Counted from the stretch's first letter, positions 2,507 to 28,529 are shown. The stretch is 32,000 nt of DNA from Candidatus Saccharimonadota bacterium (GCA_016699205.1 CP064964.1:720001-752000); one strand, 5' to 3'. Numbers and translations are program-made. The notes: generated by a model from the sequence alone, not told the origin.

Positions 2507-3319
2507 ATGATGGGGACTATGAACAGTAAGCAAAGAACAAAGAGTATCTGGTCGGTGCTTGCCCTCCTGCTCTCTGTTTTCTTGTTCTCCGTTCCTTCCG
2601 GCGTGCTTGCTATTGAATGCCCGCCACAAGCGTCTGACTTGAACTCAGCGCAAATTGCGGCTTTTGGCGATCTCACGCTGATGAGTTGTCAGAATTTATC
2701 AGCTGAAGTATCTGGGCCTGATCGGTCGCGGCGCTGTGTTTCCGGCGCTTGTCCCGGCGGAACTGATACGATGTGCTGCATGCCAGGCACGGGTGCCTCG
2801 CGCGGATTGGGCGGGGAGGAACCGTCAGCACCAGCTGGTGGAGGCGGTGGTGGGGGTGTGCTCCGACTTCAGCTGCCGGCGTGCGTCGCGGATGGAAATT
2901 GCGGATTGGATGACATTGTTGAGACGGGTGTGAACTTTGCCAACTTCTTGTTTGGTATTTCCGGCGCGATTTTTCTTGCGATCTTTGTTTACGCCGGATT
3001 CAAGTATATTTTCTTTGCTTCTCAATCGAGCGAGGTTTCGGCAGCCAAAGGCATGCTCGTGAATGCAACGATTGGTATTATCTTGATGTTTGGTGCAAGC
3101 GCGCTTGTGACAACCGTTTACAACGCATTCCGCGCCGGTGGTTCCGGTGGGGATGCCCGCTGTACCGCGTCGTTTCCCGCAAATTCTTGTCAGCCGCTTT
3201 CTGCTAACTGGGAAGATGTGACGGCTCGCAACGCGGAAATCCGTGACAGAAGCTGTCAGCCGGGATTGTGCGGGGATGATAATCGTTTGGTCTGTTGTCC
3301 GACGGAAGCTGCTCGCTAA
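2507..3319 (+). CDS. VirB2/TrbC-like (T4SS-pilin-like) protein 1, with Cys-rich modules on both sides of the pilin core
   Basis: 270 aa. N-terminal hydrophobic signal (IWSVLALLLSVFLFSVPSGVLA), a Cys-rich stretch (CPPQ...CVSGACPGGTDTMCCMPG) and a Gly run. Central two-helix core FLFGISGAIFLAIFVYAGFKYIFFASQSSEVSAAKGMLVNATIGIILMFGASALV. Second Cys-rich tail (CTASFPANSCQ...CQPGLCGDDNRLVCCP). Confidence 0.65.
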   Translation: MMGTMNSKQRTKSIWSVLALLLSVFLFSVPSGVLAIECPPQASDLNSAQIAAFGDLTLMSCQNLSAEVSGPDRSRRCVSGACPGGTDTMCCMPGTGASRGLGGEEPSAPAGGGGGGGVLRLQLPACVADGNCGLDDIVETGVNFANFLFGISGAIFLAIFVYAGFKYIFFASQSSEVSAAKGMLVNATIGIILMFGASALVTTVYNAFRAGGSGGDARCTASFPANSCQPLSANWEDVTARNAEIRDRSCQPGLCGDDNRLVCCPTEAAR

Positions 3320-3320
3320 T

Positions 3321-4166
3321 ATGACTCGATTACACTCTCTTTCCCAGCTTATCAAGATTCTATCGATGGCGATCGTATTATTACTTGTTTTTCCGACAAA
3401 TTCTTTTGCTGCAATTGGGGCCGCTTGCGATGTAAGCGGTGAATGTGGTGCGGGAGAAAATTGTGATAATGAAGCGGGTGGCTCGAGAACCTGTCGGCTG
3501 CCCATCGGAGCAGCTTGTACATCAAGTGCACAGTGTAGATTGGAAAGTCCTTGTACAGCAGGTACGTGTACACCCTCATCAGGTGCCCCTCCCTCGGCCC
3601 CTGTTCCAGCACCGTCCGCTGGAGGAAGTTGTCCATGCACATGTACGATTCAAACGGGTACCGGCCCGCAAAGTGTTTCTATTAGCGGAGGGATAACCGG
3701 CGTAGGTACTCCGACCGGTCCGGCGACGCGTGCGGAAGCGCAGACGGCTTGTCAGACAGCGTGTCAGGCACAGGCAGCAACGAGGACTGGAACGCTAACG
3801 ACCGCGGCGCTTGAGGGGTGTCCGGCCTCTTTGTTTGGAGCGGGCGGAGCCGGTACCGGTGCGTCAGGGACGGGAGACGGCTCAGGGAGTGGGGATGCCG
3901 GCTCCATTGCTCTGTATAATCCTCTGGACGCCGAGGTCGGCGTTGCGGAATTTATTAGCCGTGGTTTGCGCGGGGTTATTGGTTTTGTGGGTGCGCTCGC
4001 CTTGCTCATGTTTGTGTACGGCGGTGTGATGTGGATGACGGCGGGGGATAGCAAGCGTATCGATACCGCCAAGGAGATTTTGAAAAACTCGACCATTGGG
4101 CTTGTGCTGATCTTTTTCTCGTATAGCATCGTTTCCGTTGTCTTCAGTCTTTTGGGGAGCTCGTAA
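3321..4166 (+). CDS. VirB2/TrbC-like (T4SS-pilin-like) protein 2, with an N-terminal Cys-rich extension
   Basis: I chose ATG 3321, 2 nt after the upstream stop; the track ORF start 3243 lies inside gene 1. Signal peptide MTRLHSLSQLIKILSMAIVLLLVFPTNSFA. Cys-rich region (CDVSGECGAGENCDNE...CPCTCTIQ...ACQTACQAQ). C-terminal core VGALALLMFVYGGVMWMTAGDSKRIDTAKEILKNSTIGLVLIFFSYSIV. Confidence 0.7.
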   Translation: MTRLHSLSQLIKILSMAIVLLLVFPTNSFAAIGAACDVSGECGAGENCDNEAGGSRTCRLPIGAACTSSAQCRLESPCTAGTCTPSSGAPPSAPVPAPSAGGSCPCTCTIQTGTGPQSVSISGGITGVGTPTGPATRAEAQTACQTACQAQAATRTGTLTTAALEGCPASLFGAGGAGTGASGTGDGSGSGDAGSIALYNPLDAEVGVAEFISRGLRGVIGFVGALALLMFVYGGVMWMTAGDSKRIDTAKEILKNSTIGLVLIFFSYSIVSVVFSLLGSS

Positions 4167-4167
4167 T

Positions 4168-4872
4168 ATGACTATCGTATCGCGTAAGCCGCAACTTGCT
4201 AGTCTATGGATGGTCGGTGTATTTCTTTTTTCGTTTTTGGTATCTGCGATGCCGACGAGCGTATCCGCGCAGCCATTTTGCTGGTGTAAAATTGCAGATG
4301 GAACGTGTTCACAGCACGGAGCGCGTGTTGGCGAATCGCCGCGTCAGGTGACGCAGTGCGGTGATGCTCCTGCAGGAGCATCTGATACGGATCGACTTAC
4401 GTACTGTAATACGTATTGTTCGAGCCGCGGTTGGCGTGCCGTTCACTGTGAGACGGGGTATAATAATTATTATCAATCGGATAGCACTCCTGATGAGGCA
4501 AATCGCTGTACGCCTCGCGAGGCACCGGCTCCGGCCGATTCTGGGAGCGTAGAGACGCCCGGTATGGGCGATGGCGGAGAAGATCGCACAAGTCCCAGCG
4601 ACTTTGGTTTGCGTAATCCTATCGGTTCCACGGATTTGCGCGTGATTATTAGTCGGCTTATCCGCGCGGTCCTTGGTATTGTCGGCGCGCTTTTTCTTGT
4701 GATGTTTGTGTATGGCGGAGTGCTTTGGATGACGGCTGGGGAGAGTAAGCGGATTGATTCTGCCAAGAAAACATTGATCAATGCGGTCGTCGGAATGATC
4801 ATTGTCGCCTTTTCGTACTCGATGGTTTCTTTGGTGTTTAACCTCGCTGGACAGGTTGCGGGCGGCGCGTAA
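4168..4872 (+). CDS. VirB2/TrbC-like (T4SS-pilin-like) protein 3, with an N-terminal Cys-rich extension
   Basis: ATG 4168 lies 2 nt after the upstream stop. Signal peptide ...FLFSFLVSAMPTSVSAQ. Cys-rich region (FCWCKIADGTCSQ...YCNTYCSSRGWRAVHCE...RCTP). C-terminal core VGALFLVMFVYGGVLWMTAGESKRIDSAKKTLINAVVGMIIVAFSYSMV. Confidence 0.7.
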   Translation: MTIVSRKPQLASLWMVGVFLFSFLVSAMPTSVSAQPFCWCKIADGTCSQHGARVGESPRQVTQCGDAPAGASDTDRLTYCNTYCSSRGWRAVHCETGYNNYYQSDSTPDEANRCTPREAPAPADSGSVETPGMGDGGEDRTSPSDFGLRNPIGSTDLRVIISRLIRAVLGIVGALFLVMFVYGGVLWMTAGESKRIDSAKKTLINAVVGMIIVAFSYSMVSLVFNLAGQVAGGA

Positions 4873-4879
4873 GTCCTTG

Positions 4880-4888
4880 TGGTATACT
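4880..4888 (+). promoter_or_regulatory. Candidate extended -10 promoter element (TGgTATACT) upstream of the short pilin-like gene
   Basis: tgGTATACT at 4880-4888, just after the gene 3 stop. No convincing -35. Would give a leader of about 70 nt. Confidence 0.3.
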
Positions 4889-4961
4889 TCCCTCGTCGTT
4901 CCGCGCGTTAATTGCAGAACGAAGACATATCTTTGACTATGAGAAAGGAGGTGACATACGC

Positions 4962-5357
4962 ATGACTTTACGTATGAAAAAGCTTGTTGGTTTTGCCGCT
5001 ACGGCCGGTATTCTTGCCGCCACAGCGCTGCCAGCTGTCACCTTTGCTCAGGGGGGTTTGAATGCCAACGATCTTGGTGTTGGAGCCATCCAAAACGATA
5101 TTAAGCTCGGTTCCGGCGACGTTCGCCAGACTGCAGCTCGTATCATCAACGTTGCTCTCGGTTTCCTCGGTATCATTGCCGTGGTAATTGTGCTCGTCGG
5201 TGGTTTCAAATATATGATCTCGGGTGGTAACGAAGAGAAGACATCGGAAGCCAAGAACTTGATCGTGTCCGGTATTATCGGTCTCGCCATCATTCTCTCG
5301 GCTTGGGCAATCACGAGTTTCGTGATCGGCCAGCTTCTCACCGCAACCTCTGAATAA
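4962..5357 (+). CDS. VirB2/TrbC-like (T4SS-pilin-like) protein 4, short form; candidate major subunit
   Basis: 131 aa. Strong SD AAAGGAGGTG 8 nt upstream (alternative ATG at 4974). Signal peptide ...ATALPAVTFAQGG. Core LGFLGIIAVVIVLVGGFKYMISGGNEEKTSEAKNLIVSGIIGLAIILSAWAI. C-ending codon preference (CTC, ATC, GGT, AAG) resembles the ribosomal-protein genes in this window. Confidence 0.75.
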   Translation: MTLRMKKLVGFAATAGILAATALPAVTFAQGGLNANDLGVGAIQNDIKLGSGDVRQTAARIINVALGFLGIIAVVIVLVGGFKYMISGGNEEKTSEAKNLIVSGIIGLAIILSAWAITSFVIGQLLTATSE

Positions 5358-5363
5358 TCTTGC

Positions 5364-5380
5364 ACCGGCATAGCGCCGGT
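5364..5380 (+). promoter_or_regulatory. Intercistronic hairpin after pilin-like gene 4 (possible attenuator or mRNA stabiliser)
   Basis: accggc-atagc-gccggt, a 6-bp perfect stem with no T tract, between the stop at 5357 and ATG 5390. Confidence 0.3.
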
Positions 5381-5389
5381 ACTCACTAC

Positions 5390-5947
5390 ATGTCTCGTCA
5401 CTCATTCATTACCGCTTGTCTCACCGCATCACTCGTGTTGATGCCGGTTATGGCATCGGCGCAACTCACGGCGGATAACACCGGACTTTCCGGCGCGGCT
5501 GCCGGAACGGGCTTGTCTACTTCTTGTGAAGGGACGGAGTGTTTGCTCTCGATCATCGGGAACGTGATCAACCTCGTGCTCGGTTTCCTCGGTGTCGTTC
5601 TCTTGGTCATGCTGCTCTATGCCGGCTTTCTCTGGATGACTTCTGGAGGAGACACAAAGGGCGTGCAGGCGGCCAAGACCATGATTACCAATGCCGTTGC
5701 CGGCGTGGTCATCGTCGCCATTTCCTACGCTCTCACCGCTTTTGTTCTTGGCCAGTTGGCTACGATTACGGGCGATGCGGGAGGTGCAGGCAGTGAAGCA
5801 CCTGGTGCGGGAGGGAGAGGAGCGGCTTGTTCTGCTCCAGCCGACTGTCCCGAGGTTACATGTCCTGCTGGCGGCAGTTCTCCGGTCGGACCTCATGAGG
5901 GCAGGTGTGTTCTTGGTGAATGCAGTGCTTACGTCTGCTCGCCGTAA
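5390..5947 (+). CDS. VirB2/TrbC-like (T4SS-pilin-like) protein 5, with a C-terminal Cys-rich tail
   Basis: I preferred ATG 5390 (MSRHSFITACLTASLVLMPVMASAQ signal) over the track TTG at 5360. Core LGFLGVVLLVMLLYAGFLWMTSGGDTKGVQAAKTMITNAVAGVVIVAISYAL. Tail ACSAPADCPEVTCPAGG...GRCVLGECSAYVCSP. Confidence 0.7.
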   Translation: MSRHSFITACLTASLVLMPVMASAQLTADNTGLSGAAAGTGLSTSCEGTECLLSIIGNVINLVLGFLGVVLLVMLLYAGFLWMTSGGDTKGVQAAKTMITNAVAGVVIVAISYALTAFVLGQLATITGDAGGAGSEAPGAGGRGAACSAPADCPEVTCPAGGSSPVGPHEGRCVLGECSAYVCSP

Positions 5948-6009
5948 TGACCGGACGTGTATCGAGTATCGGTGCTGTGCCTTGTAAGACTTAATTCCCA
6001 GATTGATCT

Positions 6010-6423
6010 ATGAACTTGAAAAAGCTTTATTACGCCGCCGGAGCCGGTCTGAGCGTGATGGCGGGTTCCATCCCGTTTATCGCTCAGGCTCAACCCGGTC
6101 GCAACCCGTTTGATCCAAGTGGAACTGCGGCGCAAAATGTTGGTAAGATAGGTACTCAGATTGGACAAACAGGTGACCAGTCAACAAGATTGCCAATCAT
6201 TATTGGCAATATCATCAACGTTGTTCTTGGATTCATGGGCATCGTGCTCTTGTTCTATTTACTCTACGGCGGATTCCTTTGGATGACTTCCGGAGGTGAT
6301 TCCAAGGGTGTTGATGCAGCCAAGACGATGATTCGCAACGCTATTATCGGTCTTGTCATCATTGTTTCTTCCTACGCGATTTCCAGCTTTGTGCTTGCAC
6401 AGCTGTTGATCGTTACATCGTAA
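6010..6423 (+). CDS. VirB2/TrbC-like (T4SS-pilin-like) protein 6, short form
   Basis: 137 aa. Signal peptide ...GSIPFIAQAQ. Core LGFMGIVLLFYLLYGGFLWMTSGGDSKGVDAAKTMIRNAIIGLVIIVSSYAI, closely similar to gene 5. Confidence 0.75.
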   Translation: MNLKKLYYAAGAGLSVMAGSIPFIAQAQPGRNPFDPSGTAAQNVGKIGTQIGQTGDQSTRLPIIIGNIINVVLGFMGIVLLFYLLYGGFLWMTSGGDSKGVDAAKTMIRNAIIGLVIIVSSYAISSFVLAQLLIVTS

Positions 6424-6475: not shown

Positions 6476-6561
6476 GTCATTCCTGCGGTGGTAGGAGTCC
6501 ATCTGACTAAGGTTACGAATCGTCCGACCTCTAGCTGGATCCCAGCGTTCGTTGGGATGAC
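6476..6561. repeat. ~86-nt palindromic intergenic element bounded by GTCATTCC...GGGATGAC
   Basis: The terminal arms gtcattcc (6476-6483) and gggatgac (6554-6561) are reverse complements apart from one T:G pair. Size and termini match the element at 13176-13264. Confidence 0.5.
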
Positions 6562-6580
6562 AATGAAGTTATGAGATATC

Positions 6581-6658
6581 GAAAACGACCGTCGGAGCTT
6601 CTCTTGCGAGATGCTCACGACGGTCGTGATCAGAGTAGGGGCACATGGCAATGTGCCC
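6581..6658 (-). terminator. Terminator region of the minus-strand lipoprotein operon (two hairpins)
   Basis: On the minus strand just after the stop at 6667: gggcacat-tgcc-atgtgccc (6639-6658). Then a 10-bp perfect stem acgaccgtcg/cgacggtcgt (6585-6627) followed by TTTTC. Confidence 0.65.
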
Positions 6659-6666
6659 AAGTTGCG

Positions 6667-7440
6667 TCAGGGCGTTCCGGCCTGTCCGCAGTCGCCATTG
6701 GTGATCTGCCACTGCAGACCGCCAGCCATGTGGAATGGGTGAGTGCCGCGATATGCGGGAGCAGAGGCGAGCCGTCCACCTGCTGTGCGGTAGCAGAAGT
6801 AGGTGATCTCGTGACGGGGACGATCCGCGCCGTCGACGAGCGGGATGCTCATCGAAGTCGGAGACATGGGGCCCGCGCGCCGCGGGATCGCGGGCATCGC
6901 GCACATGCCGGACGTGTCGCTCACCATGAGGGGCGTTCCACCTGCAAAGGTGTGGACGACACGGCCATCGATCGCGATGGCGACATCGAAGATGGAGTTG
7001 TTCTGGACCAAGTAGTCCATGCCGTCCATCGTGTATGCTCCCCACGGCTCGGAGCCGGTGGAGAAGGCCATTGTGGAGGTCAGCATGCCCGAGGTGAGCA
7101 TGCCGGCACCGTCGACGCCGTCGCACATCTGGAGAACGCCAGGCATGCCGGTCGACGTCGTTCCGATGGGCGTCATGAGCGGGGCGCCCACGATGGGTGC
7201 GACGGGAGCGGATGCCACGACCGGAGCCGTGTCACCACCGCTGGTCTCGGAAGCGGGCTCGCGGCCGGCCATGAGGTCGGCGCGATCACGCTCGAGACGA
7301 GCGTTCTCCTCTTCCGCTTCCGTGGCACGTGCCTCGGCGCGGTCGAGACGCTCCATGATGGAGCGCATGTCGACGCTGCCGCCGCAGCCGATGAGGGTGA
7401 AGCAGGCGAGCGCGAACACGAACGAGAGGTGCTTGATCAT
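6667..7440 (-). CDS. Hypothetical lipoprotein with a short N-terminal coiled-coil (GC-rich cassette a)
   Basis: I chose ATG 7440 (MIKHLSFVFALACFTLIGCGG, lipobox LIGC). It is followed by RSIMERLDRAEARATEAEEENARLERDRADL, then a Met/Gly/Thr-rich region and a C-terminal domain with no family I recognise. The track ORF extends in frame to 7584 but lacks signal logic there. Confidence 0.7.
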   Translation of the reverse strand: MIKHLSFVFALACFTLIGCGGSVDMRSIMERLDRAEARATEAEEENARLERDRADLMAGREPASETSGGDTAPVVASAPVAPIVGAPLMTPIGTTSTGMPGVLQMCDGVDGAGMLTSGMLTSTMAFSTGSEPWGAYTMDGMDYLVQNNSIFDVAIAIDGRVVHTFAGGTPLMVSDTSGMCAMPAIPRRAGPMSPTSMSIPLVDGADRPRHEITYFCYRTAGGRLASAPAYRGTHPFHMAGGLQWQITNGDCGQAGTP

Positions 7441-7602
7441 CTGGGCCTCGTAGGGTTTTGGGTTGTTGTTTTGAGGAACGTTGGTCGTCTCAGGTTTGAG
7501 ACTTCCCTCCAAGTCATGAAGCTTGTTCATGATCATGTTCATGAATCGGAGGGAAGGAGCTCCAGGTGTAATCCCGGAGCTCACTTGCCAGAGTGATGTG
7601 TG

Positions 7603-8089
7603 TCAGCGAGAGCGAGGTGCGTGGTCGGCGCGGAGCTGGTCCTCGACGGCCTCGATGCGCGCCTCGAGCTCGGGGTCGGAAGTGACCTCGGCTTCGGGGA
7701 GCGGGCAGCTCCCGTCTGCGCAGGGCGACGATGTCATCGGCACGGAGGGAACGGCGGCCGAAGCTGCCATCCACTCGGCACGCCGAGAGGCTGCCATCAT
7801 CGTGAGCTCCGGGTTGGTGTACCCGGTGCCGTAGTAGGCCGATCCGCCGTAGGGCGAGATGCGGCCGCGCGCGCCCACGGGGAGCGCGCCTGCGGTGGAA
7901 ACCGGGGACGCCGACCATGGGGCCGGCTGCCATCGGACCGCCGACGCCGCCGCCTGCGGATCCGTAGGGACCCGAGCCGTAGCCGACGCCGCCGTAGGCG
8001 CCCATTCTGCCGCGGCCGTAGAGACCGCCGCAGCCGGACGCCATCGCGAGGAGCATGAGACCGAGGATCATCATGAGGTTCTTCATCAT
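7603..8089 (-). CDS. Hypothetical Gly/Tyr-rich lipoprotein, frame-broken in this assembly (cassette a)
   Basis: SD AAGGAG then ATGATG at 8089/8086. MMKNLMMILGLMLLAMASGCGG lipobox, then GLYGRGRMGAYGGVGYGSGPYGSAGGGVGG. Near 7880-7907 (G4 at 7904-7907) the plausible sequence continues in the +1 frame: ...ISPYGGSAYYGTGYTNPEL...DPELEARIEAVEDQLRADHAPRSR, stop 7603-7605. The length of 487 nt is not a multiple of 3. Confidence 0.55.
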
Positions 8090-8109
8090 CTTCTCCTTGT
8101 TCATCGAAT

Positions 8110-8535
8110 TCATCGAAGTCCGGGGGTGATCGAGAGGGTGGGAGAGGCGCCCCAGGCGTAGCCGAAGCCCATGCCTGGGGAAGCCGTTCATGTTCCAGCC
8201 CGCCATGCCGAATCCGCTCGTCTGCTGAAAGCAGGTCTGCTGGATGTCGGTCATCTCGGCCCAGTTGAGAACTCGGCCGGAGCGGTAGACGGGCATGAGT
8301 TGAGTGCGAACAGCGAGACAGCGCTCGTAGTCCGCGTCGGCCTCAAAATCCTCGTTGTACTCGGTGACGAGACCGCCGGCGTAGCTTGCGCTACGCATGG
8401 TGGTGTCGCCGCCCGGCCGCGTCGCGTGACGCTGGCCGTGTGGCTGCACCCCGAGATGCTATAGATGGCTACACCGATCAAGATGATCGGAAGCCACGAG
8501 ATCACGATCCAGAGACATCCTTCACGGTTGGGCAT
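8110..8535 (-). CDS. Hypothetical secreted protein or lipoprotein, two compensating frame breaks (cassette a)
   Basis: SD AAAGGAGGG then ATG 8535. Signal MPNREGCLWIVISWLPIILIGVAIYSISGC. The protein-like sequence continues in another frame (TTMRSASYAGGLVTEYNEDFEADADYERCLAVRTQLMPVYRSGRVLNWAEMTDIQQTCFQQTSGFGMAGWNMNGFP). It shifts again at the G4 run 8177-8180 to GMGFGYAWGASPTLSITPGLR, stop 8110-8112. That stop lies just upstream of the next gene's SD. Confidence 0.5.
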
Positions 8536-8624
8536 TTTCGCCCTCCTTTCTGTTAGACACACATGTTGTCCAAAGAACTTGTTGAGCTGTTTTGGCACCA
8601 TGCCTACTCCAACTCCAACGTAGT

Positions 8625-8653
8625 AATATAACATAAATAATGCCTTTTGTCAA
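8625..8653 (-). promoter_or_regulatory. Sigma70-type promoter of the minus-strand lipoprotein operon
   Basis: The minus strand reads TTGACA-17 nt-TATATT (-35 = 8648-8653, -10 = 8625-8630). It lies about 90 nt upstream of ATG 8535, in an AT-rich spacer. Confidence 0.7.
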
Positions 8654-8666
8654 GCTCATTATACTG

Positions 8667-8698
8667 TAAGGTTAGCCAAATAATCATGGCTAACCTTA
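8667..8698. promoter_or_regulatory. Perfect 11-bp inverted repeat between the divergent promoters (candidate operator)
   Basis: taaggttagcc (8667-8677), a 10-nt spacer, then ggctaacctta (8688-8698). It sits between the two -35 boxes. Confidence 0.45.
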
Positions 8699-8723
8699 GC
8701 AAAAATAAACGTGTTCACCTTTA

Positions 8724-8752
8724 TTGACAAAGGGGGCAATTTGTGCTATATT
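8724..8752 (+). promoter_or_regulatory. Sigma70-type promoter of the plus-strand operon of cassette a
   Basis: TTGACA (8724-8729), 17 nt, TATATT (8747-8752). These are the same hexamers and spacing as the divergent promoter. Confidence 0.7.
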
Positions 8753-8853
8753 ATTGTGTTCATTCTGGAGGATTGTCTCTTCCGGAATGGCGCTGTTTCA
8801 CAGCATGAGTTTGTAACAATCAACAGTTCCTCCGCCAAAAGCGGCGGAGAAAG

Positions 8854-9653
8854 GTGTCCCATGCCCCCAACGTGCCCCGTGTCGCCTCCTCGGGTCTCAG
8901 CAAGCTGTACCTCACTGAAGCATCCGGCTTCATTTCTGGACGGCTCGGCGAGCTCATCTTCAAGGCGGCTCCTCCTGCGCTCATCAGCAAGGCCGCGGGA
9001 ATGGTCCCCGATGGCATCCTCGATACGCCGGACCGTCAGAAGAGCTTCGCGTTCGCGCTCGGAATGTTTGCGCTTACGCTCTCCCAATCGGCGGCAGTCG
9101 CACAGGTCACGGAGAAGTTCTTGATTGAGTCGCTCGAGGAGCTCGCCCTGCGTAAGGGTGAGCTCGTCGGCAACGACGCCAAGAAAACGGCGATCATCAA
9201 GGATGTCTTCAACAAGCACGCTGCTCCGATCGACGCGTTGCGAGCAAGCATGTCCCGGGCGACGGCTCCTGGCCGGAACTTGTGGGACACGCTGGCCGTG
9301 CTCTCGGCGGACAAGCAGACCGCTTTCTGGGACTGGTTTCAGCTTCAGGAAGATGCCTTCCGCAAGGAGGTGCACGAGTCTGGTGCCGGAATCGTGGTGA
9401 GCGAAGAGCGTCTGCTCTCGTTCATCAGCGCGCCCGACAAGGTCAAGGCGGAATCGATGGAGCATCTGCTCAGGAAGAGCCCCAAGCTCGGACCGGGCAA
9501 GAGCGCTCTCGAGCGCTTCTTCGGAGACATCCGTGGCAAGGGGAAAAGTACCTCGAGCCGGATGGACCCGAGATGGTCGACTTCGCGACCAAGGCCACGG
9601 CCCGCGCCACCGATCGTAAGGATCGGGTGAAGGCTCGCAGCCGCATGTTCTGA
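8854..9653 (+). CDS. Hypothetical soluble, probably all-helical protein, frame-broken near its 3' end (cassette a)
   Basis: The high-GC3 frame runs from GTG 8854. Alternatively, ATG 8861 has better SD spacing if the C5 run at 8864-8868 carries an indel. At G4A4 (9540-9547) the plausible sequence moves to the -1 frame (...FFGDIRGKG / EKYLEPDGPEMVDFATKATARATDRKDRVKARSRMF, stop 9651-9653). No family recognised. Confidence 0.55.
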
Positions 9654-9751
9654 TCCATTGGCGTCCGCGCATCCTTTGTCCATGTTGGACGGGGATTGAG
9701 CGCGGACGTCATCCAACGATAAAGCGGGACATTGTCCCGAGAAGAGGGTTC

Positions 9752-11396
9752 ATGGACAAGCTCAAGGAAAGATCGTCGAGTGGGGAGAGGCTCTGCTCGC
9801 CCCGTTCATCCTGTTTCTCTACCGAGACCAGGTCTCGGCGCTCGCCAGCGATGTCTCGTCCTTCATGGTCGAGCATGTGCAGCTGGCGCGGATCTGGTGG
9901 AACTACAATCTGCCGGGCCGCGTTCGTCCGCTGCTGCTTCCCGTCCTCCTGATGACGATGCTCAGCTGGTTCGCCGGCTCGCTCGTCTTCTGGGGCATGC
10001 ATGTTCCGGAGGCGGGCTTCATCACCTACGTGTGCTGGACGGTTTGGAGCCTCGTGCTCGGAATCGTCATCCAGCGCGAGCGAGTGAAGCTCGGAAAGGT
10101 CAAGCCGATCACGCGTGCCGATCTCGAAAAGCTCGAGGCCGACACCGTGAACATGACCGATGCGGAAGCGCGTGCCGAGCGTGAGCAGCGCTTTGGTCCG
10201 ATGCGAGTCCTTGGACTTCGAGCCTTCGCGCTCGTGATCCTCGGATACTTGCTCATCGGCATCGGTCTCGCGCTCATGGGTAGCTTCTCCAACCTGGAGG
10301 GCAATCCCTGGCCCGTGACCGCACAGTTCATCCTGTTCGCGATCCTCGCGGCTTTCATCTCGCTCTTTGCAGCGATGCTGACGGCCGTGATCCTCGGTAC
10401 GGCGTTCCGCGTGGTCGGATCGATCGTGGTCGCCCTGTTCAAGGGCGGCTGGGACTCGGTTCTGACCATGCTGCCCAATGTCGAGGGGAAGAGGCCAAGG
10501 AGCTTCTGCCCAAGGATCTCGACAAGCAGCTCGCGCAGACGTGGAAGCTCTTCAAGGAATTCCTACTCAGCGCTCCCGGTGTCCTCATTCTTGGCGTGTT
10601 TGCGCTCGGGATTGTGTGGCATCACCCGCTCATCGTCTCGCTCCTGCTTCTGGCCTTCATCGGCCTCATGAGCACGACGACGTTTTCCATCGCGATGGGG
10701 AACGACGAGGCTCCGGCGCGCAAGCGTGCGGGCAAGATCGTCGCCTGGTTTTTCACCGGCGGCTTTCTCTACCGCTGTGCGGAGATGTGGTACTTCGGCC
10801 TCCCTGGAGGAACGTGGTACTGGAACTACGACAGCGTCGATTCGCCGCTCGCTCAGACGTGGAACCGAATCGTTCCTTGGTGGAATGGTTTCATGAACAT
10901 GAGCTGGTGGCAGGCGCTGCTCGTGGTCGCGGTTCTCGTGATCGCGATCATGTGCATCCTCAAGATGCCGGGTGGCAAGTGGTTCGAGCGTCTCAAGTAC
11001 GGACTGGTTGGCGTTTGCGGTGCTCTCATCGCGGCGACCATGATCGGCTTCATCGCGAACCGCGCTTCCGTGGATGCTTCGATCTCGACCATCGAGATCC
11101 CTGCGACTACGGAGAGCACTGACGCTACGACCGAAACGGCCGAGGCTCCGGCACATGTGCCCGACGCGATCGAACGGATGACGGGAACGGCGGAAGCGCC
11201 CACCCGGATTCCGCCGACCGCCCCGGTCGTGCCTGCAGCCGTGCCGGCGACTCACGTCGTCGAGCGCCGCTCTACGGAACGTGCAAGCGCTCCGTCTGCG
11301 GCCTCCGCCGATCCGTGCGAGAGCCTCGAGCGCTCGACCGGACTCACGGACCTGTTCCGTGAGAGCATGCGGCGCCGCTTCCACTGCGGCGGCTGA
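9752..11396 (+). CDS. Hypothetical polytopic membrane protein with Trp-rich loops and a Thr/Ala/Pro-rich tail; two frame breaks (cassette a)
   Basis: Three ORF segments (9752-, 9865-10671, 10596-11396) join into one protein if single bases are missing at A3 (9768-9770) and G4 (10485-10488). About 10 hydrophobic segments. Loops such as GGTWYWNYDSVDSPLAQTWNRIVPWWNGFMNMSWWQ. The start is uncertain; ATG 9865 is the alternative. Confidence 0.55.
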
Positions 11397-11433
11397 AACA
11401 ACGCACCTTCGTCCGCAAGGACACAATCTGATG

Positions 11434-11470
11434 AGCGCCCGTTCCAATTCTGGAGCGGGCGCTTTTCGTT
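11434..11470 (+). terminator. Rho-independent terminator closing cassette a
   Basis: agcgcccg, a 14-nt loop, then cgggcgct followed by TTTTCGTTT. Confidence 0.7.
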
Positions 11471-11488
11471 TCTGCTAAGATCTCGGAC

Positions 11489-12987
11489 ATGTTCAAGTGG
11501 CTCCGTTTTCCAGTTGCATTCTTTCTTGGCTCGGCCTGGTTCTCTTTGTTCCAGATCTGGGGTTCTTTTCCTGATCCGGATGCGTTTTATCATGCAAAAA
11601 TAGCCTCCTTGATGCTGGAGCGTGGGCCATTGCTGTCATTCCCGTGGCTGGATTTAACGGTGCTTCATTCTGGATTCAACGATCAGCATCTCTTGTTCCA
11701 TTATTTCTTGATGCCGTTTGTGAAATGGCTGGGGTTTTGCCGGGGCGCAGATTGCCGCTGTTGTGGCTGGAGGTCTATTTACGATGCTTGCCTTATGGGT
11801 GATTGAGAAGCTCTCGATACGTCATGCTTGGTTTTGGACCATCGTGATGATTGCCATGCCACCGATGATGACGAGGCTTTCTCTGGGTAAAGCATCGCCA
11901 TTTGCGATCGGGCTGTTTCTTTTGGGGATACTCGCCTGGAAAAAGAATACGCGCGTTTGGGCATTTTTAATCGGCGCTATTTATGCGTTCACGCATGGCG
12001 GCTGGCCATTGCTGATCGGTGCACAGATCGTTCTTTCAATGGGAATGTGGGTGTATGCGCGCTTTGTTAATGAAGAGCATGTTTGGCCTGATATGCGTAT
12101 CGCGATCGCGACATTGGGCGGGGGATTGTTTGGATCGTTTATTCATCCGAATTTTCCGGAGACCATTCCGTATCTTTGGGTTCAGATTTTTCAGATTGGT
12201 GTTGCGACGCCGATCGGACGGGTGATCATGGGAACGGAATGGTACCCATATGCGCCAATGGAGCTGCTTATGCATCTGTCATTGCTGATTGTGATCGGAT
12301 GTATTGCCGTTATTGGTTTTGTCAGGGCTCGTAAAAGCCAACTGGATGTTGTGCAGGCTTCATTTACGATTGGCTTGGGGTTACTTTCTGCGATTTTTTT
12401 GGCGCTTACGTTTAAGAGTGCGCGTTTTGTGGAGTATCTCGTTCCTGTTTCTGTTTTGTGGTTTGCAAGTTTGTTTCAGCAGATCGATGAGATGCAGCTC
12501 ATTGCTTCATTACGAAAATTGTTTCGGTATCTGCCGCATATTTTTGTGGTTGCGATGTTGTTTATCGTCGGTAAAGGCGCGATTGCGACGCGGCAGCAGC
12601 TGCGAGCGTCGGCTAAATCATTTACACGCTTTGAAAAATCGATACAGATTGTTTCTGATGAATTAAAACCAGGCGAACGATTGTTTCATTCCTGATTGGG
12701 GCCAGTTTCCTTTGCTGTGGAACAAGAATGATTCTTTGCGTTATGTCGCGGGACTTGATCCGGTGTTTTTATTGCAGGCTTCATCGACCTTATCTGATGC
12801 GTATACCGATTTGACTCTTGGAAAAAATACATCGACCGCCTTTGAAGTCATTTCCGGACTATTTGATTCGCGCATGGTTCTTGTTGAACGGAAGCCTGGT
12901 CAGAAGCTGGAGGAGATTTTGAAAAATGATCTGCGCTTCCAACAAGTGTATGCCGATGAAGAGGCCGTGATCTTTCGTTTGAAGTAA
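11489..12987 (+). CDS. GT-C-fold membrane glycosyltransferase-like protein (ArnT/PMT/STT3-like), split into three ORFs by two +1 frame breaks
   Basis: The segments 11489-11806, 11763-12695 and 12712-12987 read continuously if one base is removed near 11731-11738 (ctggggtttt) and one near 12688-12693 (cattcctga gives ...FHSDWGQFPLLWN). First-loop motif FPDPDAFYHAK. More than 10 TM segments and a soluble C-terminal domain. Family assignment is by motif and topology only. Confidence 0.55.
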
Positions 12988-13142
12988 CTTATCCACCGAG
13001 GGCATTTGACTCGGTCGGACGGTATGATAAGAAGTTTGGGTCAGTTCAGCACTTCACTCTCGCGAGAAACGTAATCATTCGTTTGTCGCGAGCGAGGGCC
13101 GAGCTCCTCGCGTTCGTCGGTTCCATGCTTGCCGACGAATAT

Positions 13143-13175: not shown

Positions 13176-13264
13176 GTCATTGCGAGGAGTCCGACGACGA
13201 AGCAATCTTGAGCGTAGGAGCGGGATCAAGATTGCTTCACCCGTTGCTACGGGTTCGCAATGAC
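13176..13264. repeat. ~89-nt nested palindromic element bounded by GTCATTGCGA...TCGCAATGAC
   Basis: Outer 10-bp perfect arms (13176-13185 and 13255-13264). Inner 13-bp perfect arms gaagcaatcttga/tcaagattgcttc (13199-13211 and 13226-13238). Its right arm supplies the last codons of the minus-strand ORF 13247-13483. Confidence 0.55.
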
Positions 13265-13483
13265 ATCATCAGGTTCATCATCTTTGAGGAGATCTTCCAG
13301 CGTCGGTTCACCCCAGAGATTGAATTCGCGTAGGGATTTGTCGATCAGATCTTCTGATTCATCGATGTCCATCATTTCATCGAGAATGCATTTATTAATC
13401 ATCTCGGCGCGGACCTCGGCTTTGGGGCGGACGGTTCCTGCCTCGTCAAAACACATGGCGCGGAGTTGCTCTTTAGTGATCAT
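13247..13483 (-). CDS. Small acidic hypothetical protein (78 aa)
   Basis: MITKEQLRAMCFDEAGTVRPKAEVRAEMINKCILDEMMDIDESEDLIDKSLREFNLWGEPTLEDLLKDDEPDDVIANP. It looks protein-like, whereas the opposite-strand ORF is Ser/Arg junk. No family recognised. Its start is only 10 nt from the divergent 13494 gene. Confidence 0.5.
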   Translation of the reverse strand: MITKEQLRAMCFDEAGTVRPKAEVRAEMINKCILDEMMDIDESEDLIDKSLREFNLWGEPTLEDLLKDDEPDDVIANP

Positions 13484-13493
13484 AGAGTAGGCT

Positions 13494-14714
13494 ATGGCTA
13501 GTATGAAGTCGTGGACAGCGTATTACAAGCAGGCGGCGACTTGGATGATTTGGGGACTGCCTTTGGCGCTTCCGTTGTATTTGGTTCGATTCAAGATTGG
13601 ACCGTTGCCGACGACGGTACTTGAAGCGTATTTATTGGTTTTGTTTGTTGCTGCGACATTGGGATTTGGAATTGGTATTTGGAAAAAGGGATGGAAGGAA
13701 ATAGGGGAGTGGAAATGGCCTGTCGCGTTATGGTCGATTGCGACGTTGGCGGCGGTGTTTTGGTCGCCATCGATCGTGACCGGGCTTGGATTGTGGCGGG
13801 CGTATGTTTTGGAACCGGTGCTCGTTTTTATTTTGTTGTTTGGATTGCGCGAGGTTGTTGATCGGAAGCGGATCGAGCAAGCGATGAGGCTGGTGATCAC
13901 GATCGTTGGCTTTTGGGCGATTTATCAGTTCATTACGGGGCAAGGGATTCCGAGTCCTTGGAATGTTTCGATCGCGGAAGGCAGGCGCGCGACGGGACCG
14001 TTTCCGTATCCGAATGCGCTCGCGTTATTTGTGGTGCCGATGGGAGCGTATCTCTTTGCTCGAGCCACCTCTCCCTCGGTCCCTCTCCTTCGTAAGGAGA
14101 GGGAGGATTGGTTGGGGTTAATTAGTTGGGCGATGGCGGGGCTCTCGGCGTTTCTTGCGAAGAGTGATGGGGGAATGTTGGCGCTCGCGTCTGCGACTTG
14201 GTTCGTTCTTTTTGCGCGAAAGGAGACGCGACGGGTGGCGATCGCTCTAGCTGTTGTTGGAGTTGTCTTGATCGCGCTTGTCGCGCCGCTTCGAAATGCT
14301 TTTATCGAACAGGCGACGTTCTCTGGGTGGTCGGGGAGAGTTCGGACTTGGACTTGGACGGAGACTTGGAACATGTTGAAGGATAGGCCGGTTTTGGGTG
14401 CAGGATTTGGCGGGTATCCGACGGTGTTTAAGCCGTATCATGAGAAGACGTTTATCGAGATATTCCAGTATCCACATACGATCGTTTTTAATGTGTGGAG
14501 CGAAGCGGGATTGGTCGGTTTGTTTGTCTTTGGATGGATTGTCGTGACGTGGGTGCGTCGAAGGGTTTCTTGGATAGCGATGGCGCCTCTTATCGCCATC
14601 TTGATTCATGGCTTGGTGGACGTCCCGTACTTCAAGAATGATCTTGCGATTGCGTTTTGGTTGTTGGCTTTTTTAGCGACCATTCAGCTTGACCGAGAGG
14701 CCATTCGTCGATAG
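13494..14714 (+). CDS. O-antigen ligase (Wzy_C)-like polytopic membrane protein
   Basis: 406 aa with about 10-12 hydrophobic segments. N-terminal ...RFKIGPLPTTVLEAYLLVLFV and loop ...DRPVLGAGFGGYPTVFKPYHE are typical of the O-antigen-ligase-like family. Confidence 0.65.
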   Translation: MASMKSWTAYYKQAATWMIWGLPLALPLYLVRFKIGPLPTTVLEAYLLVLFVAATLGFGIGIWKKGWKEIGEWKWPVALWSIATLAAVFWSPSIVTGLGLWRAYVLEPVLVFILLFGLREVVDRKRIEQAMRLVITIVGFWAIYQFITGQGIPSPWNVSIAEGRRATGPFPYPNALALFVVPMGAYLFARATSPSVPLLRKEREDWLGLISWAMAGLSAFLAKSDGGMLALASATWFVLFARKETRRVAIALAVVGVVLIALVAPLRNAFIEQATFSGWSGRVRTWTWTETWNMLKDRPVLGAGFGGYPTVFKPYHEKTFIEIFQYPHTIVFNVWSEAGLVGLFVFGWIVVTWVRRRVSWIAMAPLIAILIHGLVDVPYFKNDLAIAFWLLAFLATIQLDREAIRR

Positions 14715-14738: not shown

Positions 14739-14828
14739 GGAGAGGTGGCAGAGTGGTCGAACGCGCTGGACTCGAAATCCAGTATAGCTTCACGGCTATC
14801 GAGGGTTCGAATCCCTCCCTCTCCGCCA
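14739..14828 (+). tRNA. tRNA-Ser (anticodon CGA), type II with long variable arm, CCA encoded
   Basis: Acceptor GGAGAGG/CCTCTCC. Anticodon stem-loop ctgga-CTCGAAA-tccag. Variable arm atagc/gctat. T arm gaggg-TTCGAAT-ccctc. Discriminator G plus CCA. The D stem has one A:C mismatch. Confidence 0.9.
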
Positions 14829-14865
14829 CGTAAAAACGACAGCCTCACGCTGTCGTTTTTACGTG
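14827..14865. terminator. 17-bp perfect-stem hairpin abutting the tRNA 3' end (bidirectional terminator)
   Basis: cacgtaaaaacgacagc-ctcac-gctgtcgtttttacgtg. Confidence 0.7.
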
Positions 14866-14957
14866 CCCCGTGATCCGAGTAGCAACGAGGATTTTACGGG
14901 GCTCCGTTGTGCTGTCGTTCACGTGGCGCAGCCAGCCGTCAATCGTGTTAGGATTGA

Positions 14958-15320
14958 ATGAATATGAAAGTAGTCGTCGATTTATTGGGGCTTAAGACCG
15001 AAAGGGACGTGCTTCTTAAGTTCGGAGAGGTTTTTGAGTTCGGAGGTCCTGACGGAAATATTCCGGCAAGAGGTAATGTGCATGGGATAGGATGGGGGTG
15101 CAATTGGGACGCGATGAATGATTCTCTATACTCACTTGAAGAAGGTGGTATTTGGGCAACGAGTAAGAAATTTAGTTTTCCATTGGAAATTGAGGTGACT
15201 AATTTTAAAGAATTTGAAGAGAATGATCCTAGGCGCTTTCAAACTCTTAAGGAAATCCTCGACGCTCATATCAATGAATATCAAAAGGAAGGAAAAGTCA
15301 TGTCAGTTACGTTTATTTAA
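14958..15320 (+). CDS. Barstar-like ribonuclease-inhibitor family protein (orphan; no barnase-like gene adjacent)
   Basis: 120 aa. The pattern VVDLLGLKTERDVLLKFGEVFEF...GWGCNWDAMNDSL...FPLEIEVTNFKEF aligns by eye with barstar (...[30 protein letters not shown]...YPLVLEWRQFEQ). Markedly A+T-rich (21/60 G+C at 15181-15240). Confidence 0.6.
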   Translation: MNMKVVVDLLGLKTERDVLLKFGEVFEFGGPDGNIPARGNVHGIGWGCNWDAMNDSLYSLEEGGIWATSKKFSFPLEIEVTNFKEFEENDPRRFQTLKEILDAHINEYQKEGKVMSVTFI

Positions 15321-16497: not shown

Positions 16498-17605
16498 ATG
16501 ACTGAATCTATGAATGCTGTTTGTGAAGTTCCAAAACAACGTTCGTTTTGGCTGCGTTTCTGGCAGGCGCTGCTCGCCGTGGCGTTGGTTTGGTTTGTTT
16601 GGAAATGGATGATTTCGCCGTTTCTATTTTTGCTTCCGAGCGCGTCCGTTGGGCCGTCGTATGCCGCTATGTTTATTCTCGGTTTGGTGGCGAGTGTTTC
16701 CACGTGCCTCGCATCGACCGGTGCATTCCTCATCGCGTTTAGCGGAAAGGATTCGATGAGCGTGGCTCTTACTCATACCGGACGATTGGTTGCGTTTGTC
16801 GTTGGAGGTGCGTTACTCGGCGGTATCGGCCAGGGGATTGCGCTGTCTGTGGGCGCATACGGTATTGTCGGTATCATTCTTGGTTTCGTGCTTGCGGGGG
16901 TTGCTTTGTATCTCCTCGATCTTTTGCCGCGCAGTCTTGTGTCTCTTCCGATGGCCTTTGGCCGCTTTGCGCATGGCGTTGCGGGCAAGCACGGTAAGGC
17001 GATTCCGCCATTGGTTGGAGCCGTGACATTTTTGCTTCCTTGCGGATTCACGCAGGCCGCACAAACTATGGCTTTGGCTTCCGGTTCCGCTCAAGTCGGA
17101 GCGACGATGATGGGCGTTTTCGCTCTCGGTACGTTTCCCGTTTTGGTCGGGTTGAGTTTGTTTGGATCGATGGCATCGATGAAGAGTCGGGCGATTCAGC
17201 TTGCGACCGGAGGTATGCTCGCCTTGTTTGCGGTGGCGCAAATTGACGGCGGGCTAACCGTGCTTGGATCGCCAGTGACGCTAGAAGGTGCGATCGTTTC
17301 CGTGGGCGGTGCATTGACGGTTGCGCCGGTACAAGCGGAAGAGCAAATCGTGAGTATGCGGGTTGCGTATGGGACCTTTAGTCCGAGCCGTTTTGTTTTG
17401 AAACGGGGAGTACCCGTACGTTGGGATATTGAAGGTGTCGACGTCAGTGGCTGTGCGGAGTTCGATTGTCGCGCCGACCATCGGAGTAAATCAGAGCCTT
17501 GTTCTTGGGATGAATACGGTTCGATTTACGCCGTCTCGTACTGGTACAATTCCGTTTTCCTGCGCGATGGGTATGATTCGCGGTTCATTCCAAGTTGTCG
17601 ATTAA
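16498..17605 (+). CDS. DsbD_2/TauE-like polytopic membrane protein fused to a C-terminal cupredoxin-like domain; one +1 frame break
   Basis: ATG 16498 (MTESMNAV...), about 7 hydrophobic segments. After ...VPVRWDIEGVDVSGCA (about 17457) the conserved end is in the +1 frame: SSIVAPTIGVNQSLVLGMNTVRFTPSRTGTIPFSCAMGMIRGSFQVVD, stop 17603-17605. It lies immediately upstream of copA. Confidence 0.6.
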
Positions 17606-17609
17606 TGCT

Positions 17610-20331: not shown

Positions 20332-21003
20332 ATGGCACGCAAGAAGAGTGAGTTTCTGTCTGCGTACGGAGTCGCGTTTCAGGTTCTGAAGTCCATCACC
20401 GACGCGGTGCTGGCGGAGGGAGGATCGGATGAGGATCTGCGGTCGCTGCTGAGCGATTCTGAGAAGTGTAGGCGCGTGGCGATGGAGATCGTGGGTCATA
20501 AGCCGCGCGAGCAGAAGGGTACGTCCTACCGCGGTGACGTATCTCCTGCTGCTACCGGCTTCCGCGCCGAGGTCATCTACGTCCAGCCCTCCTACGCCGA
20601 TCTCAAGAAGGTGTTCGACTGTGTGTACGACGGCTACAAGAACGCCGAGTTCAAGCCGATCGACATCTGCAAGGATGTCTCGGTTGAGAACCGTGAGATC
20701 GAGTTCGAGCTCGTGCATCTGAACAAGGATGTGAGCACGGACAAGGCTCTCGCGGAGCTCGACAAGCAGGGCCTGTGCCCCGCTCTCTACGAGGAGCTGC
20801 TTGCCTTCGCGGCGAAGTATCCGGAGCTGCAGAAGCAGTTCCCGATCGTGGCCTTGGGCTCGGTGTGTCGCTACGACGACGACCTCTACTCTCCGTACGT
20901 CCTCTGGAACGACGTTGAGCGGGGCCTCGACTTCTACTGGATCGACGACGACTGGGACGGCCGCTACCGGTTCCTCGCCGTGCGCAAGCAGCCCAGCGCT
21001 TAG
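20332..21003 (+). CDS. Hypothetical protein (cassette b) with a conserved-looking C-terminal module ...FPIVALGS...WIDDDWDGRYRFLAVRK
   Basis: 223 aa. SD GGAGG 6 nt upstream. High GC3. No signal peptide or TM segment. No family I can name. Confidence 0.7.
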   Translation: MARKKSEFLSAYGVAFQVLKSITDAVLAEGGSDEDLRSLLSDSEKCRRVAMEIVGHKPREQKGTSYRGDVSPAATGFRAEVIYVQPSYADLKKVFDCVYDGYKNAEFKPIDICKDVSVENREIEFELVHLNKDVSTDKALAELDKQGLCPALYEELLAFAAKYPELQKQFPIVALGSVCRYDDDLYSPYVLWNDVERGLDFYWIDDDWDGRYRFLAVRKQPSA

Positions 21004-24675: not shown

Positions 24676-24729
24676 TAACGTCCTCCTTAAAGGTGGGGCG
24701 TTCCCGGAATCATATCCGGAGAACAAAAG

Positions 24730-28420: not shown

Positions 28421-28431
28421 TCCCACAACTG

Positions 28432-28478
28432 AAGGCCCCGTATCGCATTTCTGCGGTACGGGGCCTTGACTTTTTCTT
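28432..28478 (+). terminator. Rho-independent terminator between the two cassette d genes
   Basis: aaggccccgta, a 14-nt loop, then tacggggcctt followed by gaCTTTTTCTTT. The 3' arm overlaps a TTGACT box. Confidence 0.7.
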
Positions 28479-28529
28479 TAAATATTGTCCAAATGAGGCT
28501 GGGTCTTTCATACCCAGAGGGAGTCATTC

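Follow-up and report, generated by a model that had tools for sequence, protein, structure and literature searches.

Five orphan genes under mirrored promoters beside a VirB2-like pilin array: a candidate surface complex of Candidatus Uhrbacteria

Introduction

What might five adjacent genes without a recognizable family be doing, always together and always at the same place, on the chromosomes of an uncultured bacterial lineage? The question is raised by a guanine-plus-cytosine (G+C)-rich block at positions 6570-11470 of a 32-kb stretch of DNA (hereafter the window, numbered from its first letter), in which genes A, B and C, encoding predicted lipoproteins, face leftward, and genes D and E, encoding a predicted soluble protein and a polytopic membrane protein, face rightward; together, they are referred to here as the cassette. 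Patescibacteria, also called the candidate phyla radiation (CPR), are thought to live attached to other cells and, to our knowledge, the molecules at the interface with their hosts are known for only a few cultured Saccharibacteria. A to E are conserved as a unit at one chromosomal position under divergent, mirror-image and near-consensus promoters and, judging from sequence comparisons, all five families are lineage-restricted orphans that are not assignable to a known system. The reading that we favor, and to which we would give an even chance, is that the block encodes a vertically inherited, lineage-specific, co-regulated and abundant envelope or surface complex of a Candidatus (Ca.) Uhrbacteria subclade within Patescibacteria.

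Results and Discussion

The five genes are kept as a unit at one chromosomal position

Conservation of the locus was evaluated in a synteny survey of 20 related loci, searched with profiles of A to E and of the next two genes downstream, F and G. Every contig long enough displayed a common order, consisting of an SBP_bac_1 gene, five to six genes of the T4SS_pilin family (PF18895; T4SS, type IV secretion system), C-B-A on the minus strand, D-E on the plus strand, F, G on the minus strand and a Wzy_C gene. The co-occurrence across relatives, to which the earlier note on this DNA had pointed as a check, is therefore that of a set kept whole, and its position on the chromosome is retained down to 23-31% identity of the cassette proteins. 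Gene D lies immediately upstream of E in all cases, even in the most distant relative, L012, and F is missing solely in the L003/L001 lineage.

Divergence of A to E follows the same lineage order as that of the flanking genes, but it is faster. Between L009 and L003, for instance, identities in the flanks are 76% for the SBP_bac_1 protein, 71% for the last pilin, 77% for G and 74% for Wzy_C, as compared to 62% for A, 47% for B, 36% for C, 25% for D and 42% for E. The shared order of divergence argues for vertical descent of the cassette. Its distribution is narrow: an exhaustive profile search of 1.84 billion representative sequences retrieved 14 clusters (50% identity) for E, all of the same family, and repeating the search from a broader alignment did not enlarge this set. 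The relatives of E among GTDB representatives come from two Ca. Uhrbacteria metagenome-assembled genomes, and one A homologue is likewise named Ca. Uhrbacteria. No relatives of the cassette were found in IMG/VR or in phage and plasmid collections.

Sliding-window comparisons with close strains showed, in addition, that the region recombines. Positions 8743-9330, spanning the 5' half of D, are 95-97% identical to L007 and 54-72% to L002, whereas outside this tract the identities are 88-96% with L002 and 60-84% with L007; breakpoints lie inside D and around A. Moreover, pilins 3 to 6 and A are 81-84% identical between the window and L009, as opposed to 96-97% in the flanks, which delimits a hypervariable block; in the corresponding sliding-window profile, A and the last pilins fall to 72-86% identity and the remainder stays at 96-100%.

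Base composition and reading frames of the block

Positions 6501-11500 of the window have a G+C content of 0.59-0.69, except for 0.48 at 8501-9000, where the control region is located, and the flanks have approximately 0.44-0.55. Five genes were revealed within 6570-11470 by frame plots of codon-position G+C (GC3, the G+C content of third codon positions) combined with three-frame translations, with coding signal between 8535 and 6667 on the minus strand and between 8861 and 11396 on the plus strand. Each of the five starts has a Shine-Dalgarno-like site upstream. The leftward genes are followed, downstream of A, by a double hairpin at 6658-6581 on the minus strand (-47.1 kcal/mol, z = -7.9), the second stem of which leads into UUUUCG, and which likely terminates the leftward operon; the rightward terminator at 11433-11464 on the plus strand comprises a 14-bp stem with nine G-C pairs, a 4-nt loop and a T-run (fold z = -5.5).

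As assembled, the reading frame shifts repeatedly inside the block, and B to E are all interrupted by 1-base insertions or deletions (indels). These were located by alignment to L009, a locus that is 96-97% identical to the window and lies on a JGI contig of 1.11 Mb; the alignment identified seven non-triplet indels (7899, 8176, 8415, 8864, 9540, 9768 and 10485), five of them single-base deletions in homopolymer runs of G, C or A. Seven single-base reversions relative to L009 yielded five uninterrupted open reading frames (ORFs), and the corrected E matches the intact 548-residue NCBI protein P0001 at 99% identity from end to end. Two further indels (11735 and 12691) occur in gene F, outside the block. 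Similarly, an HMA domain (17595-18092, plus strand) and a P-type ATPase (18068-19747, plus strand) appear here as separate overlapping ORFs, and relatives encode them as one 714-residue protein, pointing to another indel error in the assembly. As F and the HMA/copper-ATPase gene are split outside the block, the frameshifts are better explained by assembly errors affecting the whole window than by decay of the block. Altogether, the layout described in the earlier note, that is, a G+C-rich block with an AT-rich centre and a terminator at either end, three signal-peptide lipoproteins with Shine-Dalgarno sites to the left, and a soluble protein together with a membrane protein of about 548 residues to the right, is borne out by the corrected ORFs, as is its expectation that indel correction was needed.

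A conserved control region shared by both operons

The AT-rich intergenic region between C and D (8536-8860) contains two outward-pointing promoters, in agreement with the mirrored promoters proposed earlier. Promoter P(-), at 8653-8625 on the minus strand, has its -35 box at 8653-8648 and its -10 box at 8630-8625, and promoter P(+), at 8724-8752 on the plus strand, has them at 8724-8729 and 8747-8752, respectively. Each reads TTGACA-17-TATATT with a TG extension, matching 11 of 12 consensus positions, and both represent the arms of a 37-nt imperfect inverted repeat; a promoter scan of the region returned four promoter-like sites, with 1.2 expected. Between the two -35 boxes lies a perfect 12-nt palindrome, TAAGGTTAGCCA-N8-TGGCTAACCTTA (8667-8698). 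Since this palindrome is upstream of both -35 boxes, it is a DNA site and not an RNA structure. In an alignment of nine lineages, the promoter hexamers and the TTAGCC/GGCTAA half-sites are invariant, even though the flanking proteins are only 25-40% identical, and this is strong sequence evidence for a conserved control element common to both operons. The invariant divergent promoter and palindrome thereby offer a testable regulatory element.

The 5' leader of D holds a short upstream ORF (MALFHSMSL, 8787-8816, plus strand) and a hairpin (8827-8852) that overlaps the D Shine-Dalgarno sequence and pairs with it. In the L003 and L006 lineages, a longer version of D begins at the ATG of this upstream ORF. 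Against Rfam, the window gave only a tRNA, and no known riboswitch in this leader.

The high G+C content is mainly a codon-usage signal

In all five lineages examined, GC3 is higher in A to E (0.58-0.90) than in flanking genes (0.30-0.67), indicating that the anomaly is old and maintained. The shift consists mainly of C-ending over T-ending codons, together with fewer A-ending codons, and G-ending four-fold codons are hardly altered between the cassette and its flanks. In L009, the fractions in cassette and flanks are 0.82 and 0.28 for Phe TTC, 1.00 and 0.28 for Tyr TAC, 0.61 and 0.23 for Gly GGC, and 0.70 and 0.26 for Leu CTC. Expressed as C3/(C3+T3), the ratio of C to C plus T at third positions, A to E reach 0.74-0.89, as compared to 0.28-0.47 for the genes of leucyl-tRNA synthetase (LeuRS), SBP_bac_1, five of the six pilins, F, Wzy_C, NifS and the ATPase, with the sixth pilin at 0.56; the ribosomal protein genes rpS15 and rpS6 have 0.81 and 0.61. 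Moreover, the C-over-T bias follows the coding sense on both strands. These patterns suggest that the high G+C content of A to E is a translational-selection signature of high expression and not a mark of foreign origin, and near-consensus promoters are in keeping with it. More generally, an island-like G+C-rich block may turn out to be a conserved codon-bias signal, which matters for island prediction in CPR genomes. A cassette-like bias was also observed in a 312-residue ORF at 23788-24726 on the minus strand (GC3 0.81, C3/(C3+T3) 0.84), which gave only a weak match to a cyclic nucleotide (cNMP)-binding domain.

Predicted features of the five proteins

Bacterial lipoproteins, the substrates of Lgt and LspA, were recognized by motif, as proteins with a positive n-region, a hydrophobic h-region and a lipobox of the form [LVI][ASTVI][GAS]C. 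By this measure A, B and C are all lipoproteins, each beginning with a charged n-region and a hydrophobic stretch that ends in the lipobox, and the Cys and lipobox are kept in the homologues of all lineages. Gene A (6667-7440, minus strand) encodes a 257-residue protein that starts MIKHLSFVFALACFTLIGC and has the lipobox LIGC (FTLIGC). Directly after the lipobox Cys comes an Lpp-like, Ala/Glu/Arg-rich coiled coil of about 30 residues (approximately 25-57), modeled by AlphaFold2 (mean predicted local distance difference test, pLDDT, of 63.4) as one long helix (25-57), followed by a disordered Pro/Ala/Thr linker (60-100) and a beta-sandwich (approximately 140-250) with conserved Cys. The 20 A homologues share this one architecture, and none has a Pfam domain. 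Gene B (7603-8089, minus strand; split by an extra A at 7899) encodes a lipoprotein of about 161 residues with the lipobox ASGC (LLAMASGC), 18% Gly and the Gly/Tyr-rich low-complexity region seen earlier, as well as a conserved S.Y.G(T/S)GY..P motif and a heptad-like, coiled-coil-like segment at the C-terminus. An alternative ATG for B at 8113 overlaps the stop codon of C, and the overlap between C stop and B start is 4 nt in L003, L004 and L010. Gene C (8110-8535, minus strand; split by indels at 8176 and 8415) encodes a lipoprotein of about 141 residues with the lipobox ISGC (AIYSISGC), two conserved Cys and, as the earlier note had it, an aromatic and Gly-rich C-terminal part, GFGMAGW...GMGFGYAWG; in the window it ends ITPGLR, within a conserved extreme C-terminus PG(L/I/V)R.

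Gene D (8861-9653, plus strand; missing bases at 8864 and 9540) encodes about 264 residues without signal peptide, Cys or conserved transmembrane (TM) segment and with a basic C-terminal tail, by which sequence features it is classed as a cytoplasmic protein. No other gene of the set evolves as fast, and recombination has made it mosaic. Gene E (9752-11396, plus strand; missing bases at 9768 and 10485) encodes the 548-residue polytopic membrane protein, with about nine TM segments. Lys/Arg counts in its loops (the positive-inside rule) and hydropathy fit an N-in/C-out topology with about nine hydrophobic segments, which would place outside both the Trp-rich loop 348-388 (10 Trp, including VPWWNG and SWWQ) and the T/A/P/E-rich tail, which ends in an invariant Cys...Cys mini-domain; the presence of this loop and tail agrees with the earlier description. 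Its most conserved segment, LFKGGWDS..LPNVEGEEAKELLPKDL, is predicted to be cytoplasmic, and further motifs are WHHP and GFLYRxAEMW. The AlphaFold2 model of E is poor (pLDDT 56.6). An internal duplication of E was rejected, as its N-terminal and C-terminal halves aligned with an hhalign probability of 0.25%, and no internal repeat or pseudo-symmetry was found. Overall, conserved Cys pairs are a feature of A, C and the E tail, and D is devoid of Cys.

The failure of the earlier note to match the cassette to any described system was reproduced in library, PDB, Foldseek and VirB6 profile searches. Proteins A to E from four lineages gave nothing above noise in Pfam, NCBIfam, PHROGs and PADLOC, the best E-values in PADLOC (0.061) and PHROGs (0.029) being non-significant and each from one protein. 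Member-by-member scans at E ≤ 10 with 19 sequences of E and 20 of A showed no recurrent family, except for a sub-threshold Alanine_zipper in A. Profiles of A, D, E and F retrieved no match among PDB sequences, and neither did Foldseek at E ≤ 0.001 with the models of E and A against PDB and of A against BFVD; the matches to the beta-sandwich of A were generic Ig-like folds. Given the pLDDT of the E model, its negative Foldseek result carries little weight.

A candidate surface complex, and what speaks against it

Based on these features, A, B and C would be lipid-anchored on the outer face of the cytoplasmic membrane, where a coiled-coil stalk and linker could hold the beta-sandwich head of A off the membrane. 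Protein E, with nine TM segments, would expose its Trp-rich loop and its Pro-rich, disulfide-capped tail outside, and would present its most conserved, acidic loop inside to D, so that the five proteins might form one stoichiometric, abundant and membrane-anchored surface complex. Fast evolution, recombination in mosaic tracts and the fact that A co-varies with the adjacent pilins point to an exposed role at the cell surface, as exposure would account for both the rate of evolution and the recombination. Most plausibly, the complex would contact or attach to a host cell, or serve as a scaffold that spans the wall, and it may work alongside the neighboring pilin array and the glycan genes (F and Wzy_C); the location of the genes suggests, but does not prove, this cooperation. 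A more specific version, which we regard as doubtful, is that A to E represent an unrecognized and very abundant envelope machine of Uhrbacteria, a host-contact organelle acting with the pilins and glycan genes and switched by a dedicated regulator of the TTAGCC palindrome; it could, for example, provide CPR VirB2-type filaments encoded far from VirB4 with their missing platform or anchor in the membrane.

Several observations weigh against the surface complex. The reading of the five proteins as a complex is drawn from sequences and models, the AlphaFold2 models are of low confidence (56.6 for E and 63.4 for A), and the topology comes from hydropathy only. The clade also keeps the order of clearly unrelated genes, such as those for LeuRS and the copper ATPase, which makes adjacency to the pilin array weak evidence of shared function. 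It is the cytoplasmic D that evolves fastest, which a simple argument from surface exposure fails to explain. As for abundance, the codon-bias argument draws on just two ribosomal protein genes, both of them small, GC3 could likewise be raised by GC-biased gene conversion at a recombination hot spot, G3/(G3+A3) is modestly raised too, and the pilin genes themselves are without the cassette's codon bias. Finally, unannotated genes are common in CPR genomes, which tempers any surprise at finding five of them. Nevertheless, conservation as a unit, mirrored promoters with their palindrome, codon bias, recombination and the pilin neighborhood make the cassette a better-than-average candidate for a surface structure. 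If it is a surface complex, it would offer a concrete lead on how cells of a major uncultured lineage attach to hosts or organize their envelope, and all five protein families would be new.

Alternative explanations

Three rival explanations, namely a platform for the pilins, a transporter, and an exclusion or immunity module, were ranked below the envelope complex. The first of them is unlikely, and it is the one that fares best. It holds that the cassette assembles or anchors the adjacent VirB2-like pilins as an analogue of T4SS inner-membrane parts, with E in a VirB6-like role and the small lipoproteins resembling VirB7, exclusion lipoproteins or VirB8. Its appeal lies in the position of the cassette, always directly beside an array of five to six T4SS_pilin genes, in the way A varies together with the pilins among close strains, and in what we take to be a general resemblance of E to VirB6 (both are polytopic, have Trp in an external loop and extend into a hydrophilic C-terminus). 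PMC12102498 lends it further plausibility, as it reports 441 VirB2-like pilin arrays in Patescibacteria, often away from virB4, with few or no VirB6 and VirB8 proteins detected in several classes, "suggesting extreme sequence divergence". The pilin array is also reported there to be essential in one cultured relative; in a term search of the paper, no gene set like the cassette was mentioned and "Uhrbacteria" did not occur. However, profile comparisons leave E as a divergent VirB6 unsupported, since none of 19 E family members matched TrbL/VirB6 (PF04610) in Pfam at E ≤ 10, and E profiles aligned with an MPF_T VirB6 alignment of five sequences (R46 and four other plasmids) with an hhalign probability of 0.1-0.2%. 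In addition, the PDB profile searches returned no T4SS chain. A T4SS gene cluster is taken to include a VirB4-family ATPase, and none is present in the window or within ±10 kb in relatives: Pfam scans of 30 of the larger ORFs of the window revealed no VirB4/CagE/AAA_10 domain, no VirB4 was found among the genes called within ±10 kb in L002, L003, L009, L010 and L022, and a VirD4-type ATPase was equally lacking in the window and over the same distance in relatives. The absence of the cassette's codon bias from the pilin genes also counts against a joint machine.

Slightly less probable again is that the cassette transports material across the membrane, for instance in the uptake or export of lipids, glycans or other building blocks of the envelope, in which E would be the channel, D its cytoplasmic partner, and A to C the substrate-handling lipoproteins. 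A polytopic protein with accessory lipoproteins is a common layout for transporters, conservation in E is highest at charged or polar motifs beside TM segments (GND, WHHP, R..AE and EGEEAK), a GT-C-looking membrane protein (F) and a Wzy_C gene lie downstream, and CPR cells presumably have to scavenge lipids. On the other hand, no match was found to any Pfam or NCBIfam transporter family, superfamilies such as ABC-2, MFS, RND and MOP among them; the cassette has neither an ATPase nor a recognizable binding protein, E lacks an internal repeat or pseudo-symmetry, of which the former is typical of secondary transporters, and Foldseek returned no match.

Much less probable is a horizontally acquired G+C-rich island, such as a prophage remnant or a module serving exclusion, immunity or defence, and as a foreign island it is effectively refuted. 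The G+C content 10-20 points above the flanks with sharp borders at the terminators, the mosaic recombination between strains, and the fact that entry-exclusion lipoproteins adjoin virB6 in MPF_T plasmids would all be in its favor. Nevertheless, the position is identical in all lineages and all loci, the divergence order is that of the flanks, no integrase, transposase or recombinase domain was found, and the searches of IMG/VR, phage and plasmid collections, PADLOC and PHROGs were all negative; on these grounds, an island, phage or plasmid origin was rejected. Moreover, the G+C excess persists at 23-30% protein identity and consists mainly of C3 over T3, with G-ending four-fold codons unchanged, unlike an import from a high-GC donor. 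The least tenable alternative, that A to E are decayed pseudogenes, would take its cue from the seven frameshifts inside five genes as assembled, but it was rejected and is effectively refuted, as five of the seven are homopolymer-type single-base deletions, gene F and the HMA/ATPase gene are likewise split beyond the block, intact versions are known at 99% (P0001), about 96% (L009) and 89% (L002) identity, the codon-position G+C structure is strong across the whole block, and seven single-base edits bring all five ORFs back.

The earlier note had left the choice between an envelope or surface machine and an export or immunity module. The former is now the most reasonable, given the conserved lipoboxes, the Cys pairs and the topology of E, and the latter found no support. 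Its picture of a self-contained cassette, in the sense of an island, did not survive the fixed position, the flank-like order of divergence, the lack of mobile relatives and the ribosomal-like codon bias.

Neighboring genes and other features of the window

The pilin array of the window comprises six tandem VirB2-like genes (PF18895) at 2507-6423 on the plus strand, after the SBP_bac_1 gene. On the other side of the cassette, gene F (11489-12990, plus strand; in three pieces from its indels) encodes a conserved polytopic membrane protein of about 500 residues, with an invariant F.DPDAFYHAK motif near the N-terminus and ordinary codon usage, and without a Pfam or PDB match; E and F were rejected as paralogues. 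Gene G (13250-13522, minus strand) encodes a small and very acidic protein of 68-77 residues (MCF..G.V.PKA..RAEMINK.ILDEMMDIDE...) that matched no family, and its identity is the highest or near-highest of the tested genes in each lineage comparison (66-87%). Further downstream, a tRNA gene (14739-14825) is followed by a Barstar-like gene (14958-15320) with a low GC3 of 0.38, where relatives hold a GIY-YIG or a Zn_ribbon_2 gene, so the spot (14739-15320) looks like a small variable insertion site. A 223-residue ORF with a GC3 of 0.83 (20332-21003, plus strand) lies between a DsbB and an Rrf2-like gene; as the latter two are adjacent in an L003-type relative, the ORF appears to be a strain-specific insertion. 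Lastly, two large neighboring genes at 26087-30461 on the plus strand (777 and 643 residues, GC3 0.70) share a layout, in which a signal peptide and an ectodomain with a similar NP(C/G)(I/H)IIY motif are followed by a single TM segment and, on the cytoplasmic side, by a long coiled coil; they matched no Pfam family and, from this layout, may represent another lineage-specific envelope pair.

Comparison with known systems

Among known proteins, A calls to mind Lpp and OprI, in that its lipobox Cys is directly followed by an Ala/Glu/Arg-rich coiled coil, modeled as one long helix (25-57). The similarity is below threshold, with an E-value of 0.0026 and 18.3 bits against NF040598 (Lpp/OprI), the curated cut-off of which is 43, and with matches to Alanine_zipper (PF11839) in 4 of 20 homologues at a best E-value of 0.029. 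Unlike Lpp, A extends, over 257 residues in all, through a disordered linker to a beta-sandwich domain that contains Cys. The setting differs as well, since the organism is presumed to be monoderm, with no outer membrane or Lpp-type peptidoglycan tether.

Protein E shares with VirB6/TrbL a polytopic build, a Trp-containing external loop and a hydrophilic C-terminal extension, and the small, fast-evolving lipoproteins of the cassette, with VirB2-like pilin genes adjoining, recall the VirB7 and EexN genes in the surroundings of VirB6. Nevertheless, E has about nine TM segments and 548 residues, as compared to approximately 350 residues in MPF_T VirB6. Unlike VirB6 loci, the cassette is without VirB4, VirB3 or VirB8 nearby, and, unlike lipoproteins of the VirB7/EexN type, A to C are encoded divergently and not in the pilin operon.

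With respect to the pilin arrays of Patescibacteria, the cassette proteins are not pilins, as none matches PF18895 or PF04956. Nonetheless, the cassette has the same neighborhood as these arrays and the same hypervariable, recombining behavior between strains.

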